Assembly (NCBI GenBank): GCA_035250245.1
Contig: DATFFH010000019.1
Span: forward strand, 14,167 to 78,166
Direction: 5' to 3'
Origin: Luteimonas sp.
GTDB taxonomy: Bacteria > Pseudomonadota > Gammaproteobacteria > Xanthomonadales > Xanthomonadaceae
Length of the DNA: 64,000 bases
Numbering within the stretch: position 1 is the first letter of the stretch; every line of letters begins with the position of its first letter. Position numbers and translations under genes: made by a program. Positions 24,214 through 29,626 of the stretch are shown piece by piece. Under the pieces are notes generated by a model. That model was not told where the DNA came from. It made no database searches and saw only the letters and a program-made list of their open reading frames with translations.

Positions 24214-24299
24214 TGGTGCGAAAGGCGGGACTCGAACCCGCACGGGGGTTACCCGCTGGAACCTAAATCCAGTGCGTCTACCAATTCCGCCACTTTCGC
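24214..24299 (-). tRNA. tRNA-Leu(TAG)
   Basis: Reverse complement GCGAAAGTGGCGGAATTGG...GATTTAGGTT...TTCGAGTCCCGCCTTTCGCACCA. Confidence 0.95.
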
Positions 24300-25143: not shown

Positions 25144-26097
25144 GTGCGCGAGCTGTATCCCGAAATCGAGCCTTACGATCGGTTCCGCCTGAAGGTCGAC
25201 GGCCTTCACGATCTGCACGTGGAGCAATGCGGTCATCCCGACGGGCTGCCCGTCGTCTTCCTGCACGGCGGTCCGGGCGCGGGCGTGTCGCCCTATCACC
25301 GCCGCTTCTTCGATCCTCGCCGCTATCGCATCGTTTTGTTCGATCAGCGCGGCGCCGGCCAATCGACGCCGCATGCCGAACTGCGCGACAACACGACCTG
25401 GCACCTGGTCGCCGATATCGAAACGCTCCGCGAGCGGCTGGGGATCGATCGCTGGATCGTATTCGGCGGTTCCTGGGGTTCGACCCTCGCCCTGGCCTAT
25501 GCGCAAGCCCATCCGCAGCGCGCGCTCGCCTTGGTGTTGCGCGGCATCTTCCTGGGGCGGCCGCACGAAATCCGCTGGTTCAACGAACTCGACGGCTTCG
25601 CCCGCCACATTTTTCCCGAACGCTGGGCGCGCTATCTGGCGCATATTCCCGAGCAGGAACGCGGCGAAATGATCGAAGCCTATTGGCGCCGGCTCGACAG
25701 CGGCGATCCCGACGTGCGCCTGGCCGCGGCGCTGGCCTGGGGCAATTGGGAAGGCGGCAGCACCACGCTGATCCACGATCCCGACGAAGCCGGCACCCAG
25801 GAAGATCCACACGTCGCGATCAGCGTGGCGCGCGCCGAAGCCCATTATTTCCGCCACGGCGTATTCCTCGAGCCGGGACAACTGCTGCGCGACGTGGATC
25901 GCATCCGCCATCTGCCCGCGACGATCGTGCATGGCCGTTACGACATGATCTGCCCGGTCGACAACGCGTGGGAACTGGGCCAGGCCTGGCCGGAAGCGGA
26001 TCTGCGCATCGTCCTGGCCGGGCATAGCGCGGCGGATCCGGCGATCGTGGATGCGCTGGTGACGGCGACGGATGCGCTGGCCGGGCGATTCACTTGA
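25144..26097 (+). CDS. pip: Proline iminopeptidase
   Basis: FLHGGPG, FDQRGAG, GGSWGS, GRYDMICP, AGHS; GTG start. Confidence 0.94.
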   Translation: MRELYPEIEPYDRFRLKVDGLHDLHVEQCGHPDGLPVVFLHGGPGAGVSPYHRRFFDPRRYRIVLFDQRGAGQSTPHAELRDNTTWHLVADIETLRERLGIDRWIVFGGSWGSTLALAYAQAHPQRALALVLRGIFLGRPHEIRWFNELDGFARHIFPERWARYLAHIPEQERGEMIEAYWRRLDSGDPDVRLAAALAWGNWEGGSTTLIHDPDEAGTQEDPHVAISVARAEAHYFRHGVFLEPGQLLRDVDRIRHLPATIVHGRYDMICPVDNAWELGQAWPEADLRIVLAGHSAADPAIVDALVTATDALAGRFT

Positions 26098-26105
26098 ACC
26101 AAACG

Positions 26106-26133
26106 AAAAAAAGCGCCCGGGCCTCGGGCGCTT
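26106..26133 (-). terminator. Intrinsic terminator for arr
   Basis: Minus strand AAGCGCCCG-AGGCC-CGGGCGCTTTTTTT. Confidence 0.75.
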
Positions 26134-26178
26134 GGATTCGCTAGCCTCTTGGATTCGAGAATTATCGGATGGATGCAC

Positions 26179-26580
26179 TCACTCTTCGATCGCCTCAATG
26201 CCGAGTCGTTTGAGGTTCTCGAGATTGTCGTGCATTTCCTTCAGCTGCTCGGCCGAGTGCCCCTGCCAATCCGCCACCTCGCCGACCACGCGGAACGGCT
26301 CCCGCGAACGGTACGACTTCGTGGGATTCCCCGGAAATTTCTTGTCCGTCAGGTTCGGATCGTCTTCGATGGATCCTGTCGGCTCCACGATGTAGATCCT
26401 GCCGCGCCCCTCGCCGGCGGCCAGTTCGGCACCCCAGATCGCCGCCTCCAGCGTGGCGGAAAGGTAAACGAACTTCGCTTGCCTCCTCTGCCCGTAATTG
26501 GAGACGTAACCGGCTTCGATCAGGTCGCCCGCCTTCAGGTCGGCCTTGGTGCCGTGGTAGTAGGTTTGCGCATCGGTCAT
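26179..26580 (-). CDS. arr: NAD+:rifampin ADP-ribosyltransferase
   Basis: YHGTKADL..GDL, VYLSAT, WGAELA.G...RIY.VEPTG, EDDPNLTDKKFPGNPTKSYRS: Arr signature with His/Tyr/Asp. Confidence 0.94.
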   Translation of the reverse strand: MTDAQTYYHGTKADLKAGDLIEAGYVSNYGQRRQAKFVYLSATLEAAIWGAELAAGEGRGRIYIVEPTGSIEDDPNLTDKKFPGNPTKSYRSREPFRVVGEVADWQGHSAEQLKEMHDNLENLKRLGIEAIEE

Positions 26581-26637
26581 CGCATCGCTCCGGTAGCCCT
26601 GCCCTTTCGGCAGGCCGGCGATGCTGCATCATGCGCC

Positions 26638-26656
26638 GGGCCTTGCCGCAAGCCCC
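26638..26656 (-). promoter_or_regulatory. Rifamycin-associated element (RAE)-like 19-bp palindrome
   Basis: Minus strand GGGGCTTGCGGCAAGGCCC, 57 bp upstream of the arr ATG; identical to the RAE consensus as I recall it. Confidence 0.8.
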
Positions 26657-26671
26657 CGGGCGTTATATAAA
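26643..26671 (+). promoter_or_regulatory. Antisense sigma70-like promoter in the arr leader
   Basis: TTGCCG (26643-48) -17 nt- TATAAA (26666-71). Confidence 0.65.
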
Positions 26672-26680
26672 TTGGTTGTG

Positions 26681-26710
26681 GGAGGCGCTCGGCGCCTCCT
26701 TTTTTATTTT
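26681..26710 (+). terminator. Plus-strand intrinsic terminator just after the antisense promoter
   Basis: GGAGGCGC-TCG-GCGCCTCC followed by TTTTTTATTTT. Confidence 0.65.
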
Positions 26711-26734
26711 ATTGGCCGGCCCGCGGCACGGCAA
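26706..26734 (-). promoter_or_regulatory. Sense sigma70-like promoter of arr
   Basis: Minus strand TTGCCG (26734-29) -17 nt- TAAAAT (26711-06). Confidence 0.65.
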
Positions 26735-26760
26735 AGAAGCGGCCGATCCTCAAGAACCGG

Positions 26761-27270
26761 CTAATCCGGCAGATTCGAACGAATCAGATCTACGGTTGCG
26801 GTCATTTGCCCGGCAGACACTTGAACCCGCTGCCTGCGCTGCGCATCTCCGCCCGGATCGTGCGACGTACCCCTTTGACGTCCGGCGCCATCGAATGTGG
26901 CGAGTTGCGGAGGGCCTATCCCCCAATCGCTGCCCTTCTGCCGGGGCACGACGTGGAAATGGAAGTGCGGCGTTTCTTGCCCGCTATAGACCCCGTTGTT
27001 TTGGAACGCAAGTATTCCGAGAGGGTCATAAGTCTTGACGAGCGCCTCTGCGACTCTCTTCGCCGAAACCAGGATGGCCTCGCATTCTTGCCGGGAAAGA
27101 TCGAGCAGCGTCGCGACATGCCGGCGTGTGATGACGCAACACTGGCCGACCTCGAATTGCCAGGGATTGATCACGGTGAGCGTATGTTCGCCCTCCTCGA
27201 TGATCTTCCACTTTTCTTCGCGAGCCGCCACGCAAAGGTCGCACGGATCTCTAACGGGAAGTTCGATCAA
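26761..27270 (-). CDS. HIT-family nucleotide hydrolase
   Basis: CDLC, GQCCVITRRH, QNNG...GQETPHFHFHVVPR triad; TTG start after GAGGAG. Confidence 0.88.
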   Translation of the reverse strand: MIELPVRDPCDLCVAAREEKWKIIEEGEHTLTVINPWQFEVGQCCVITRRHVATLLDLSRQECEAILVSAKRVAEALVKTYDPLGILAFQNNGVYSGQETPHFHFHVVPRQKGSDWGIGPPQLATFDGAGRQRGTSHDPGGDAQRRQRVQVSAGQMTATVDLIRSNLPD

Positions 27271-27486
27271 TGGCCTCTCCTCGGGTCGACAAAAAAGAGT
27301 GTCCGTAGAGTTCGCTCGGGTCGGAAGCGGTCGCTGCATGCAGGACGCTTGACTCCGATGCCGGGCGTTCTCGATACGAGATCATGGGTGTAAGAGACCA
27401 AGGCCGCGCTACGTCTCCGATCGTCATCGGCTGGAATTGTCGGAAAAGAAACAGGCACTTGGATTGCTCCAAGTGCCTGCTTTAAT

Positions 27487-27562
27487 TGGTGGGCCGTCAA
27501 GGATTCGAACCTTGGACCTATTGATTAAGAGTCAACTGCTCTACCAACTGAGCTAACGGCCC
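27487..27562 (-). tRNA. tRNA-Lys(CTT)
   Basis: Reverse complement GGGCCGTTAGCTCAG...GACTCTTAATC...TTCGAATCC...ACGGCCCACCA. Confidence 0.96.
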
Positions 27563-27583
27563 CGAACATTTATTGTAACAAAT

Positions 27584-27661
27584 TGGGGTGGCTGAGGGGA
27601 CTCGAACCCCCGACATCTGGAATCACAATCCAGTACTCTAACCAACTGAGCTACAGCCACC
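27584..27661 (-). tRNA. tRNA-His(GTG)
   Basis: Reverse complement (G)GTGGCTGTAGCTCAG...GATTGTGATTC...CAGCCACCCCA; G-1/C73 His identity. Confidence 0.96.
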
Positions 27662-27847
27662 GTAGACCAGCCATTGTAGCGCAGGCGATAACCGAATTTT
27701 AAGCGTCCCGCTCTGATCGGGCCCCGAGCCGCCGGATTCCGGCCTCCGCGAAGCCTCGGCGCGGCCCGCCACGAGCCCTGACTACCGGCCGTTGCCGCGC
27801 CTCGGCGCTGCCCGCATAGTCTTCGGCCGCAATGCCGGACCCTGCCG

Positions 27848-28657
27848 ATGACCGCAACCAAGCACGCACCGATCGGCGCCCTGCTGCGCGAATGGCGGGC
27901 GATGCGGCGCATGAGCCAGATGGACTTGGCGCTGGAAGCGGGCATCTCCACGCGGCACCTGAGCTATATCGAAACCGGCAAAGCCAAGGCGAGCCGCGGA
28001 CTGGTCGCCGGACTCGCCGATGCCCTGGGCATGCCGCTGCGCGAACGCAACGCGCTGCTGCTGGCCGCGGGATTCGCGCCCCATTACTCCGAAACGCCGC
28101 TGGTGAAGCCCGAACTGGACCGCATGCGCGAAGCGATCGAGTTCATTCTGAAGCACCAGGAACCCTACCCCGCCTTCGTCATCAACCGGCGTTGGGAAGT
28201 GGTGCTGGCCAACGACGCGGCGGTCCGCATAAACCGCTTCCTGATGCAGGGCCGCCCGCTGCGGCATTCGAACATGCTGCACCAGGTCTTCGATCCGGAG
28301 GATTTCCGCCCCGTGATCGTGAACTGGCCGGAAGTCGCCGGCCGCTTCATCAGTCTGCTGCACGAGGAGATCGCGGCCGTGCCTTCCGATCCCGGACCTC
28401 GGCAACTGCTGAACGAAATCCTGGCCTATCCCGGCGTGCCGGAACATTGGCGCTATCGCGACCTGGAAAGCGAGGCGACGCCGATCCTCAACCTGGTTTT
28501 CCGCAGCGAACAGGGCGAAGTGCGTTTTTTCGAGACCATCACCACCTTCGCCGGCTCCAAGGACATCACCCTGGACGAATTGCGGATCGAGTGCTCTTTT
28601 CCGGTCGACGAGAGGACAGCCGAACTCTGCCGTCGCCTGCAAGCCGAAGAGGTTTGA
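27848..28657 (+). CDS. XRE-family HTH regulator with MmyB-like C-terminal domain
   Basis: SQMDLALEAGISTRHLSYIETG; RNALLLAAGFAP; EPYPAFVINRRW; ELRIE. Confidence 0.88.
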   Translation: MTATKHAPIGALLREWRAMRRMSQMDLALEAGISTRHLSYIETGKAKASRGLVAGLADALGMPLRERNALLLAAGFAPHYSETPLVKPELDRMREAIEFILKHQEPYPAFVINRRWEVVLANDAAVRINRFLMQGRPLRHSNMLHQVFDPEDFRPVIVNWPEVAGRFISLLHEEIAAVPSDPGPRQLLNEILAYPGVPEHWRYRDLESEATPILNLVFRSEQGEVRFFETITTFAGSKDITLDELRIECSFPVDERTAELCRRLQAEEV

Positions 28658-28669
28658 AACCGCGCGCCG

Positions 28670-29626
28670 TCAAGCCCAGAGCTTGCGCGCTTCCTCGACG
28701 ATGATCTCGGGATGTTCCTCGGGGAAGAACAGCCTGGCCTTCTCCACCAGGCGGACGCCGCGCGAACCGGGGAAGGTGCGATCCAGCCAATGCGCCGTTT
28801 CCACCGGGAACAGGTCGTCGTCCACGCCCCAGATCATCCGTACCGGCTTCTTGAAGGCGCGCAATTGCGGCCGCACCGACGGCAGCGGATTGGGGAACAT
28901 GTCCAGGCCGTACTCCTCGACCTGCTTGCGGCGTTTTTCGGGAGCGACCAGCGGGCGGAAGTAGGTTTCGATGAGCTCGTTCGTCAGCAGGCGCTCGGGA
29001 TCGTGGTAGGCGTTGCCGATCGCATCGCGCGAGCGCGCCCACGCCTTGTCCGCGAGGCTCTTGTCGAACCACAACCGGCCTTCGCCGCGGCGCGCTTTCT
29101 CCAGGAACGGCATCAGCTTCTCGGGCGGGCTGTTGGTGTCGACGTCGCCGTTGGTGAGCAGCATCGAACGGACCCGCTGCGGATGATGGGCAGCCATCAG
29201 CTGGGCGATGCCGGTGGAACTGTCGTTGGCGACGATATCGACTTCGGCGATCTTCAAATGGTCCAGCAGCGCGATCACCATCGTCGTCTGCGCTTCCGGC
29301 GAAAGATCGGCGTCCGCCGCGACATCGGTATAGCCCAGGCCCATCAGGTCGGGCGCAAGGCAGCGCCTTTCGCCGGCCAACGCAGCCATCGGCCCGCGCC
29401 ACTGGTAGCCGTTCAAGGGATAGCCATGCAGGAACAGCGCGACCGGCCCGCTGCCGCGCTCCACATAGGCGATCTTGCCTTGCGTGAGATCGGCGAAGCG
29501 CCGCGCGGCGTGGAATTGCGCGGGCGTCCAAACCGCCCCGCCCGCATCGGCGGCCCAAGCCATGCGCGTCGCCAATGAAACGGCCGCCGCCGCGGGGAAC
29601 AACAGGAGGAATTCGCGCCGGATCAT
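28670..29626 (-). CDS. Alpha/beta hydrolase with twin-arginine signal
   Basis: IRREFL Tat motif; FLHGYP, PDLMGLG, ANDSS nucleophile elbow, IWGVDD. Confidence 0.85.
   Translation of the reverse strand: MIRREFLLLFPAAAAVSLATRMAWAADAGGAVWTPAQFHAARRFADLTQGKIAYVERGSGPVALFLHGYPLNGYQWRGPMAALAGERRCLAPDLMGLGYTDVAADADLSPEAQTTMVIALLDHLKIAEVDIVANDSSTGIAQLMAAHHPQRVRSMLLTNGDVDTNSPPEKLMPFLEKARRGEGRLWFDKSLADKAWARSRDAIGNAYHDPERLLTNELIETYFRPLVAPEKRRKQVEEYGLDMFPNPLPSVRPQLRAFKKPVRMIWGVDDDLFPVETAHWLDRTFPGSRGVRLVEKARLFFPEEHPEIIVEEARKLWA

Follow-up and report, generated by a model that had tools for sequence, protein, structure and literature searches.

The RAE upstream of arr in Luteimonas as a possible shared -35 core of two divergent promoters

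We describe an RAE-like palindrome located upstream of arr, a rifampin ADP-ribosyltransferase gene of Luteimonas sp., and propose that it may be the palindromic -35 core shared by two back-to-back promoters of the sigma-70 type; we put the probability of this reading at roughly 45%. An outward (antisense) promoter would transcribe just its own terminator, and an inward promoter, P2, would transcribe arr. Comparison of RAE-carrying loci shows both predicted promoters, the terminator and a geometry that is symmetric and fixed, and this two-promoter architecture is much better supported than is either regulator-free sensing of the drug or control by a transcription factor. The interpretation offered in a preliminary description of the region is partly supported: the RAE very probably contains an antisense promoter with a micro-terminator of its own, but the conserved pair is divergent and shares a -35, and the helD mechanism of Bacillus subtilis is not transferable to it as it stands.

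Searches for rifamycin resistance genes have relied on the RAE since 2014, arr and helR of Mycobacterium abscessus being among those found, and in the RAE literature searched (Spanogiannopoulos et al. 2014; Surette et al. 2022; Hurst-Hess et al. 2022) the element is described as an actinobacterial element confined to Actinobacteria and is treated as a probable factor-binding site. Its mechanism is still called unknown in a 2026 paper on helD (PMC12802891) and in the other literature searched, in which we found no proposal of an antisense promoter within the RAE.

The arr region of Luteimonas

The window, by which we mean the whole 64 kb stretch of DNA analyzed here, contains arr between a convergent proline iminopeptidase-like gene and a co-directional HIT-family gene (Table 1), with 180 bp of intergenic DNA on its 5' side. 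The arr product matches the Pfam Arr-ms family (PF12120, E = 6.9e-51) and the structure of M. smegmatis Arr (2HW2, E = 4.9e-49), and its homologues carry the name NAD(+)--rifampin ADP-ribosyltransferase. An Rfam scan of positions 25500-28000 identifies two tRNAs only, the remaining hits being sub-threshold chance matches. The DNA of the organism derives from a rhizosphere metagenome.

The 19 bp RAE lies upstream of arr and matches the consensus with one mismatch (Table 1); it is present as a single copy in the window, where 0.09 are expected. Measured from the arr ATG (26580), the near end of the palindrome (26638) lies 57 nt upstream and the far end (26656), where the element starts when read in the direction of arr, 76 nt upstream. 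Two -35 hexamers are contained within it, TTGCGG (26651-26646, minus strand) for P2 and TTGCCG (26643-26648, plus strand) for the antisense promoter; they share 3 bp, and the center of the RAE coincides with them, at about -33 of either promoter. Promoters of the MerR type have a 19 bp spacer with a palindromic operator centered within it, between the -35 and the -10, and we rejected a MerR-type operator because the RAE is centered at the -35s and not in mid-spacer. A sigma-54 promoter in the RAE was also rejected, since the spacing is wrong and Actinobacteria are not known to have sigma-54.

Table 1. Coordinates of genes and predicted regulatory features in the arr region of the window
Feature	Position	Strand	Basis
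Proline iminopeptidase-like gene, convergent with arr	25144-26097	+	
Intrinsic terminator of arr: hairpin, then TTTTTCGTTT	26111-26133	-	Terminator scan
arr, rifampin ADP-ribosyltransferase, 133 aa	26179-26580	-	Pfam PF12120, 2HW2, homologue names
Shine-Dalgarno GGAG, 7 nt 5' of the arr ATG	26588-26591	-	Read from sequence
5'-UTR stem-loop CCTGCCGAAAGGGCAGG, predicted 5' end of arr mRNA	26598-26614	-	Minimum-energy leader fold
Predicted -10 of conserved sense promoter P2, CAGCAT, 19 nt from sense TTGCGG	26621-26626	-	Kept in RAE loci
RAE-like palindrome GGGCCTTGCCGCAAGCCCC	26638-26656	Palindromic	One mismatch to consensus GGGGCTTGCGGCAAGCCCC
Predicted antisense -10: TATAAA (26666-26671, N17) overlapping TAAATT (26668-26673, N19)	26666-26673	+	N19 conserved across phyla
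GTGGG, predicted antisense start (G26678 or G26680)	26678-26682	+	Sequence conservation
Predicted micro-terminator: stem-loop GGGAGGCGC-TCG-GCGCCTCC and U-tract	26680-26710	+	Terminator scan, folding
Face-to-face sense promoter candidate TTGCCG-N17-TAAAAT	26706-26734	-	Consensus scan, 9/12
HIT-family gene, co-directional with arr	26761-27339	-	

Distribution of RAE-arr loci

The comparison draws on 160 genomic and metagenomic arr loci and on L001, a Logan contig that is a duplicate of the window; mycobacterial arr loci were gathered through M. smegmatis-like Arr proteins. Of the 161 loci that include L001, 17 have an RAE 5' of arr, and the other 144 lack even a diverged copy. The carriers include all five of the sampled Xanthomonadales genomes, five metagenome contigs of the same type and L001, together with two Rhizobiales-like loci, one locus each from the Hyphomonadaceae and from a cyanobacterium, and two from Thermoleophilia. 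Among nine actinobacterial loci, five non-redundant mycobacterial ones have the RAE upstream of arr and two more are duplicates; it is lacking upstream of arr in the Actinomycetospora locus L166 and in contig L171. The Tsukamurella and Leptolyngbya plasmid arr loci do not contain an RAE, the plasmid matches to arr being mostly the integron genes arr-2 and arr-3, and a search of viral contigs for the RAE gave no match. The nearest relatives of the Luteimonas arr with the same module are in Xanthomonadaceae, Tahibacter, Pseudoxanthomonas and Rhodanobacteraceae, and the module is also found in Rhizobium, a member of the Hyphomonadaceae, and a cyanobacterium. A distribution of RAE-like elements beyond Actinobacteria, in Proteobacteria and a cyanobacterium, is documented by these matches, and this wider range bears on predicting which environmental and opportunistic bacteria have inducible resistance to rifamycins.

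The genes upstream of arr differ among these loci. The HIT-family gene of the window is co-directional with arr, L002 has a divergent DUF1254/DUF1214 gene, and L009 a gene with a metallo-beta-lactamase fold; in L006 the nearest identifiable gene is of the glyoxalase family and is about 840 nt away. None of the neighbor genes in the window recurs in any other locus, and no conserved regulator gene was found beside arr, the neighbors varying in every locus. We considered an MmyB-like regulator encoded at 27848-28657 as a regulator of arr and rejected it, its gene being missing from every other locus. The module is present in Gamma- and Alphaproteobacteria, a cyanobacterium and Actinobacteria, and a dedicated lineage-specific regulator is therefore disfavored.

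Predicted -10 hexamers on either side of the RAE

An ungapped alignment anchored on the RAE was constructed for 22 loci of six lineages (Xanthomonadales-type, Rhizobiales, Hyphomonadaceae, the cyanobacterium, Thermoleophilia and mycobacteria). Because the 22 loci are homologous, the counts that follow measure conservation and not independent events. On the antisense side the consensus reads T-A-n-A-n-T and then G-A-n-n-G-T-G-G-G, with a fixed 19 nt between this hexamer and the TTGCCG inside the RAE. The hexamer conforms to nAnnnT in 21 of the 22 loci and to TAnAnT in 18 (backgrounds of 3.5% and 0.064%, respectively, in the same loci); positions 3 and 5 and the 11 nt linker to the RAE are variable, and the constant positions are those that define a -10. 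At the mirror position on the sense side, 11 nt from the RAE edge and 19 nt from TTGCGG, nAnnnT is present in 19/22 loci, with the variants CAGCAT, CACAAT, CATAAT and TAGAAT, most of which have C as the first base; the antisense hexamer retains T as its first base. In 18/22 loci the better -35 (TTGCCG) falls to the outward promoter, owing to the central base of the palindrome. In the mycobacteria the antisense patch is not A+T-rich and the -10 pattern is retained.

The outer arms of the RAE, GGGG and CCCC, are conserved beyond the needs of a -35 hexamer; they can be read as the spacer starts of each promoter, and they also fit a dimeric protein site. In the Xanthomonadales-type loci the conserved unit spans about 125 bp, has the terminator T-tract at one end and the arr start codon at the other, and includes a predicted -10 on either side of the RAE; the loci are not alignable upstream of the T-tract.

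The predicted outward promoter and its micro-terminator

A preliminary description of this region had placed an antisense promoter, TTGCCG-N17-TATAAA, at 26643-26671 with its -35 inside the RAE, and had suggested that the RAE is the core of this promoter and that a micro-terminator ends its short RNA. The promoter motif is present and unique, occurring once in the 64 kb with 0.00 expected from shuffled sequences. The expectation that other RAEs would also have a -10 exactly 17 nt from the internal TTGCCG is borne out in 10 of 11 Xanthomonadales-type loci (as TATAAA or TATACA) and fails elsewhere, where the overlapping N19 hexamer is the one that holds. The GTGGG containing the predicted start is kept (as CCCAC on the sense strand) in the Xanthomonadales-type loci and in mycobacteria, and is altered at one position, to CCAC or CCAT, in Rhizobiales and Thermoleophilia; in the ungapped alignment of 22 loci the cyanobacterial and Hyphomonadaceae sequences have no counterpart.

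The plus-strand hairpin and U-tract that were also described previously are recovered by the terminator scan at 26680-26710. The hairpin (26680-26700) has nine base pairs, seven of them G-C, and a 3 nt loop, and is followed by TTTTTTATTTT; its fold has an energy of -17 kcal/mol (z = -3.1). The G+C-rich stem, short loop and adjoining U-tract are those of an intrinsic (Rho-independent) terminator, and the antisense RNA would have a length of about 28 nt (range approximately 27-31 nt). For comparison among loci we used folds of each sequence and a motif test, as MAFFT misaligned two divergent stems. In 9 of 10 Xanthomonadales-type loci the stem begins at +1 of the predicted antisense start, against a background of 18 in 820 windows, and the motif test detects no terminator motif on the sense strand of the module. 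Three different stem sequences are represented in all, with those of L009 and L082 unrelated in sequence and in the same place. Because the terminator keeps its register while the surroundings change, the best explanation is that transcription begins at the predicted antisense start.

Three other roles for the hairpin or its RNA were rejected. It has no repeat family within the window and is not a genomic repeat there; it is not the terminator of the HIT gene, for which its orientation is wrong and which has no U-tract on its strand; and pairing of the antisense micro-RNA with the arr leader is discounted by the variation of the stems between loci.

A start map of M. smegmatis bears on the same prediction. 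In drug-free cells it contains no sense start for arr (MSMEG_1221, 1290581-1291009), and at 1290484, which is 97 nt before arr, both data sets have a start on the minus strand that was assigned there as a second start of the divergent gene MSMEG_1220. The distance from the beginning of the RAE to the start codon is 67-68 nt in syntenic relatives, the Arr proteins of which are 95% and 90% identical. Placed through these 90-95% relatives, the M. smegmatis start is 26-30 nt upstream of the RAE, compared with a prediction of 23-26 nt, an agreement that is close, not exact, and made via relatives. Metatranscriptome contigs on L006 have a flat depth over the whole intergenic region and are uninformative for starts.

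With a -10 pattern conserved in six lineages, a terminator in register and an M. smegmatis antisense start mapped about where predicted, the earlier proposal of an antisense promoter built around the RAE is supported, and we think it quite likely that the predicted promoter and its terminator are both real. We doubt strongly that these features are incidental, with the TATAAA patch acting as an UP-like element for P2 and the hairpin stopping read-through from the downstream gene or protecting the upstream neighbor. The A+T-rich patch does fall at about -51 to -61 of P2, in the UP-element zone, and the arr terminator is poor in the plus direction, such that read-through from the gene at 25144-26097 is possible; the earlier statement that no plus-strand gene needs the micro-terminator is essentially right, in that arr lies between that gene and the terminator, and has to be tempered by this possible read-through. 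However, the conserved pattern is T-A-n-A-n-T and not an A or T tract, the mycobacterial patch is not A+T-rich, the terminator is in register with the predicted start although the genes on both sides differ, and the mapped M. smegmatis antisense start is beside the RAE.

The promoter of arr

P2 is the only conserved sense promoter in the alignment, and on balance we take it to be the promoter of arr. Its -10 is followed by a conserved CG, with a G+C-rich stretch after CAGCAT, and directly downstream of its predicted start at about 26614 come a conserved 5' stem-loop and the ribosome-binding site. The Shine-Dalgarno sequence is kept as ACCGGAGCG across the Xanthomonadales-type loci; other lineages have a stem at the same 5'-UTR position with differing sequences, as seen in the ungapped alignment with no statistical test. 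The mapped promoter P2 of M. smegmatis helD has a -35 that overlaps the RAE (PMC10719064), and the RAE of this gene is described elsewhere as overlapping the more downstream of two sense promoters (PMC12802891). In M. abscessus, deletion of half of the RAE abolishes complementation by helR, and the RAE therefore acts positively, in a promoter-like manner. The arr P2 is located across the RAE from the antisense promoter, and the conserved pair is therefore divergent (back-to-back) and not convergent.

This is not the arrangement that was described initially, in which a minus-strand promoter, TTGCCG-N17-TAAAAT at 26734-26706, faces the RAE antisense promoter, suppression of arr being relieved by a rifampicin-arrested antisense polymerase as in the helD type of interference. 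The helD precedent is experimentally established: in B. subtilis helD/pps (Sudzinova et al., NAR 2026, PMC12802891) there is a strong antisense promoter in the 5' UTR with a weak sense promoter upstream, and the helD and pps antisense promoters have 19 bp spacers and end at intrinsic terminators. The two starts are 39 bp apart and the antisense RNA is about 90 nt long, with an intrinsic terminator, and induction is lost in a rifampicin-resistant rpoB mutant or when the promoters are 17 bp closer (del17).

For the arr region, the minus-strand sequence is present as described, both motifs in the window have 9/12 matches, the antisense arm and terminator are well supported, and the arithmetic of convergent starts at 26678 and 26699, about 21 bp apart, is correct. 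The role of the minus-strand sequence as the arr promoter does not survive comparison, however. It has no counterpart in L002, L003, L005, L006, L009, L082 or L083, and L084 and L085 have just weak A-tract look-alikes, leaving no equivalent in any relative. The consensus scan finds two sites of its class in 4 kb versus 0.8 expected, so that on its own it is barely above chance, single 9/12 matches being close to the chance rate, and its TAAAAT falls within the stretch complementary to the terminator T-tract; we conclude that it is probably fortuitous. In L002 no upstream sense promoter is detectable and the upstream gene is divergent, and read-through therefore cannot supply sense transcription there. 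Polymerases at starts 21 bp apart would overlap, and the gap matches that of the del17 construct of B. subtilis, in which 39 bp are shortened by 17 to 22 bp and rifampicin inducibility is lost (PMC12802891). With the conserved sense promoter across the RAE, both the face-to-face architecture and the convergent interference invoked for it seem very improbable for arr.

Possible mechanisms of rifamycin sensing

If the RAE is the shared -35 core of a divergent pair, the outward promoter would be the one closer to consensus, combining TTGCCG with TATAAA or TAAATT and initiating at G26678 or G26680, and its only product would be the RNA of about 28 nt that contains its terminator. The inward P2 (TTGCGG-N19-CAGCAT) would be weak and would yield an arr mRNA headed by the stem-loop. 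As the -35 hexamers overlap by 3 bp, only one polymerase at a time could use the element, and as the outward promoter is the better of the two, with T as the first base of its -10 and TTGCCG in 18/22 loci, it would take most of the polymerase and arr expression would be low. We suggest that it could act as an insulated decoy that holds arr low without the drug; because its RNA self-terminates, RNA polymerase would be released before reaching the neighboring genes, which the terminator would protect. The two-way -35 would divide the polymerase supply, one share going to a sentinel promoter that is insulated and heavily used and the other to the promoter of the resistance gene, and rifamycin might be sensed through polymerase traffic at the pair and not by a dedicated regulator.

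Promoters with a common -35 exclude each other, and this is a problem for any regulator-free model. Competition alone predicts repression and not induction, because an arrested outward polymerase also blocks P2 and the P2 share is unchanged; we rejected plain competition as the induction mechanism, the sign of the effect being wrong. The del17 construct of B. subtilis, which loses induction once its two promoters are sterically exclusive, agrees with this. Induction needs either some extra property or a trans-acting factor. The extra property could be that the -35 contact is released after opening at promoters with 19 bp spacers, or that the arrested enzyme is removed. A polymerase-based mechanism is favored by the spread across phyla, the lack of an associated regulator gene and the selection maintaining the antisense -10, and we offer regulator-free sensing as a tentative suggestion. 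Equally speculative is its general form, in which RAE-controlled resistance would require no regulator protein in any phylum, the two-way -35 making the drug target itself the sensor.

A factor may be involved if the RAE is instead the operator of a rifamycin-responsive transcription factor, with ordinary -10s flanking it and an antisense promoter that is a by-product or the relic of a divergent region. We think this rather unlikely, to about the same degree as regulator-free sensing. The 19 bp palindrome, with its outer arms conserved too, would suit such a site, the literature views the RAE as a probable factor-binding site, and a trans-acting factor fills the gap left by simple polymerase competition, which cannot explain induction. 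But no regulator gene travels with the module, the neighbors of which vary in every locus; the module spans four phyla, so that the factor would have to be nearly universal; and no RAE-binding factor has been reported up to 2026 in the literature searched. A useless antisense promoter should decay, whereas the -10 is conserved and an in-register terminator has been acquired. Deletion of half of the RAE lowers expression and does not make it constitutive, which argues against a simple repressor, and the M. smegmatis antisense start is active in drug-free cells, when the RAE is consequently not blocked.

Recognizing the RAE as the shared -35 of a symmetric pair, if this is correct, would reduce the puzzle of its action to a few point-mutation and in vitro transcription tests. 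The regulator-free idea, if true, would explain why no regulator has been found and how a module of approximately 75-125 bp moves with arr among Actinobacteria, Proteobacteria and Cyanobacteria. It would also provide a second architecture, divergent and with a shared -35, for polymerase-based sensing of rifampicin beside the convergent helD type.

Relationship to other promoter systems

The arr pair as predicted here would resemble B. subtilis helD/pps in that a gene for rifampicin protection is preceded by a weak sense promoter and an antisense one that, judged from its sequence, may be stronger, with a 19 bp antisense spacer, a short antisense RNA with an intrinsic terminator and, as proposed here, no dedicated regulator. 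The B. subtilis promoters are convergent and both can be occupied, whereas the arr promoters are divergent, share a -35, and have starts about 65 bp apart that point away from each other; the antisense RNA is also shorter, at about 28 nt compared with about 90 nt in B. subtilis. Relief as published for B. subtilis, where a sense polymerase dislodges the arrested antisense enzyme, is not applicable to the arr pair in its present form.

The rpoBC genes of M. smegmatis provide another comparison. According to Zhu et al. 2018, as reported in PMC10719064, rifampicin shifts the balance between tandem interfering promoters with no regulator, and in that summary, as in our proposal for arr, the drug raises expression through the balance of two interfering promoters without a regulator. 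The rpoBC promoters differ from the arr pair in being, as given there, tandem and co-directional and without a palindromic shared -35.

Relative to the actinobacterial RAE, the Luteimonas element is the same 19 bp palindrome (one mismatch), is likewise upstream of arr, and overlaps the sense -35 as does the RAE at helD P2. It differs in its proteobacterial, Xanthomonadales-like host, in the predicted -10 on each side, and in the antisense micro-terminator of this clade.

Finally, Warman et al. reportedly described in 2021 bidirectional promoters that arise from -10 symmetry and have starts about 18 bp apart. The arr element is similar in that symmetry of the DNA would give divergent starts from one compact element, but those promoters share the -10 region, whereas the arr element would share a symmetric -35 and have separate -10s.

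Spread of the RAE and a mapped start beside it

According to the literature, the rifamycin-associated element (RAE) is an actinobacterial element. RAE-type elements are also found upstream of the rifampin ADP-ribosyltransferase gene arr in Xanthomonadales, Rhizobiales, Hyphomonadaceae and one cyanobacterium (non-actinobacterial loci L002, L003, L005, L006, L009, L010, L057, L066, L082-L085, L090 and L141), whereas no RAE was found upstream of arr in Bacteroidota, from which many arr genes were sampled. Comparison of 22 RAE-arr loci shows a bias at position 10 (26647 in the window), the palindrome's central base; in 18 of the loci this base gives the antisense promoter TTGCCG, the better -35, and the sense promoter TTGCGG.

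The Mycobacterium smegmatis start site 1290484 (minus strand), published in the supplement of Martini et al. 2019 and attributed there to a second, distal promoter of the divergent gene MSMEG_1220, adjoins the RAE upstream of arr and possibly belongs to that element's antisense promoter. The same start map records no start of arr's own without drug.

Transcript ends

In the window a stem-loop, CCTGCC-GAAAG-GGCAGG, would form the 5' end of the arr mRNA as predicted, and stem-loops of varied sequence occupy the equivalent position at L002-L009, L082-L085 and L164-L172, with mycobacterial versions such as CCGTCC...GGACGG and GTTCCG...CGGAAC. A hairpin would thus open both transcripts of the module. 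At the other end of arr, the terminator has a U-tract on the arr strand only, so that antisense read-through from the convergent gene is possible; its transcription may cross arr in the antisense direction, and read-through would then reach the plus-strand micro-terminator.

Features around arr in the window
Feature	Coordinates	Strand	Remark
tRNA-Leu	24214-24299		adjoins trigger-factor-like ORF
Convergent gene	25144-26097
arr terminator	26111-26133
arr 5' stem-loop	26598-26614	minus	5' end of predicted arr mRNA
Micro-terminator	26680-26710	plus
tRNA-Lys(CTT) and tRNA-His(GTG)	27487-27660		just upstream of HIT-family gene
MmyB-like regulator	27848-28657	plus	HTH and MLTR_LBD domains
alpha/beta-hydrolase gene	28670-29626	minus

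Neighbouring genes and extended Arr proteins

The MmyB-like regulator and the alpha/beta-hydrolase gene are convergent (tail to tail), 1.3 kb from arr. The regulator is absent near arr in all other loci compared, and for this reason is unlikely to be the arr regulator. There are tRNA genes on both sides of the arr-HIT pair, and sites between tRNA genes are a frequent location of acquired DNA.

An N-terminal extension, about 90 residues long, is found in some Arr proteins, namely those of the Thermoleophilia loci L051 and L099 and the cyanobacterial proteins P0001-P0020 (about 230 aa). The L051 extension contains two CxxC motifs (CPVCHGQGTINEQPCAACQG), and at both L051 and L099 about 250 nt separate the Arr domain from the RAE, which precedes the extension.
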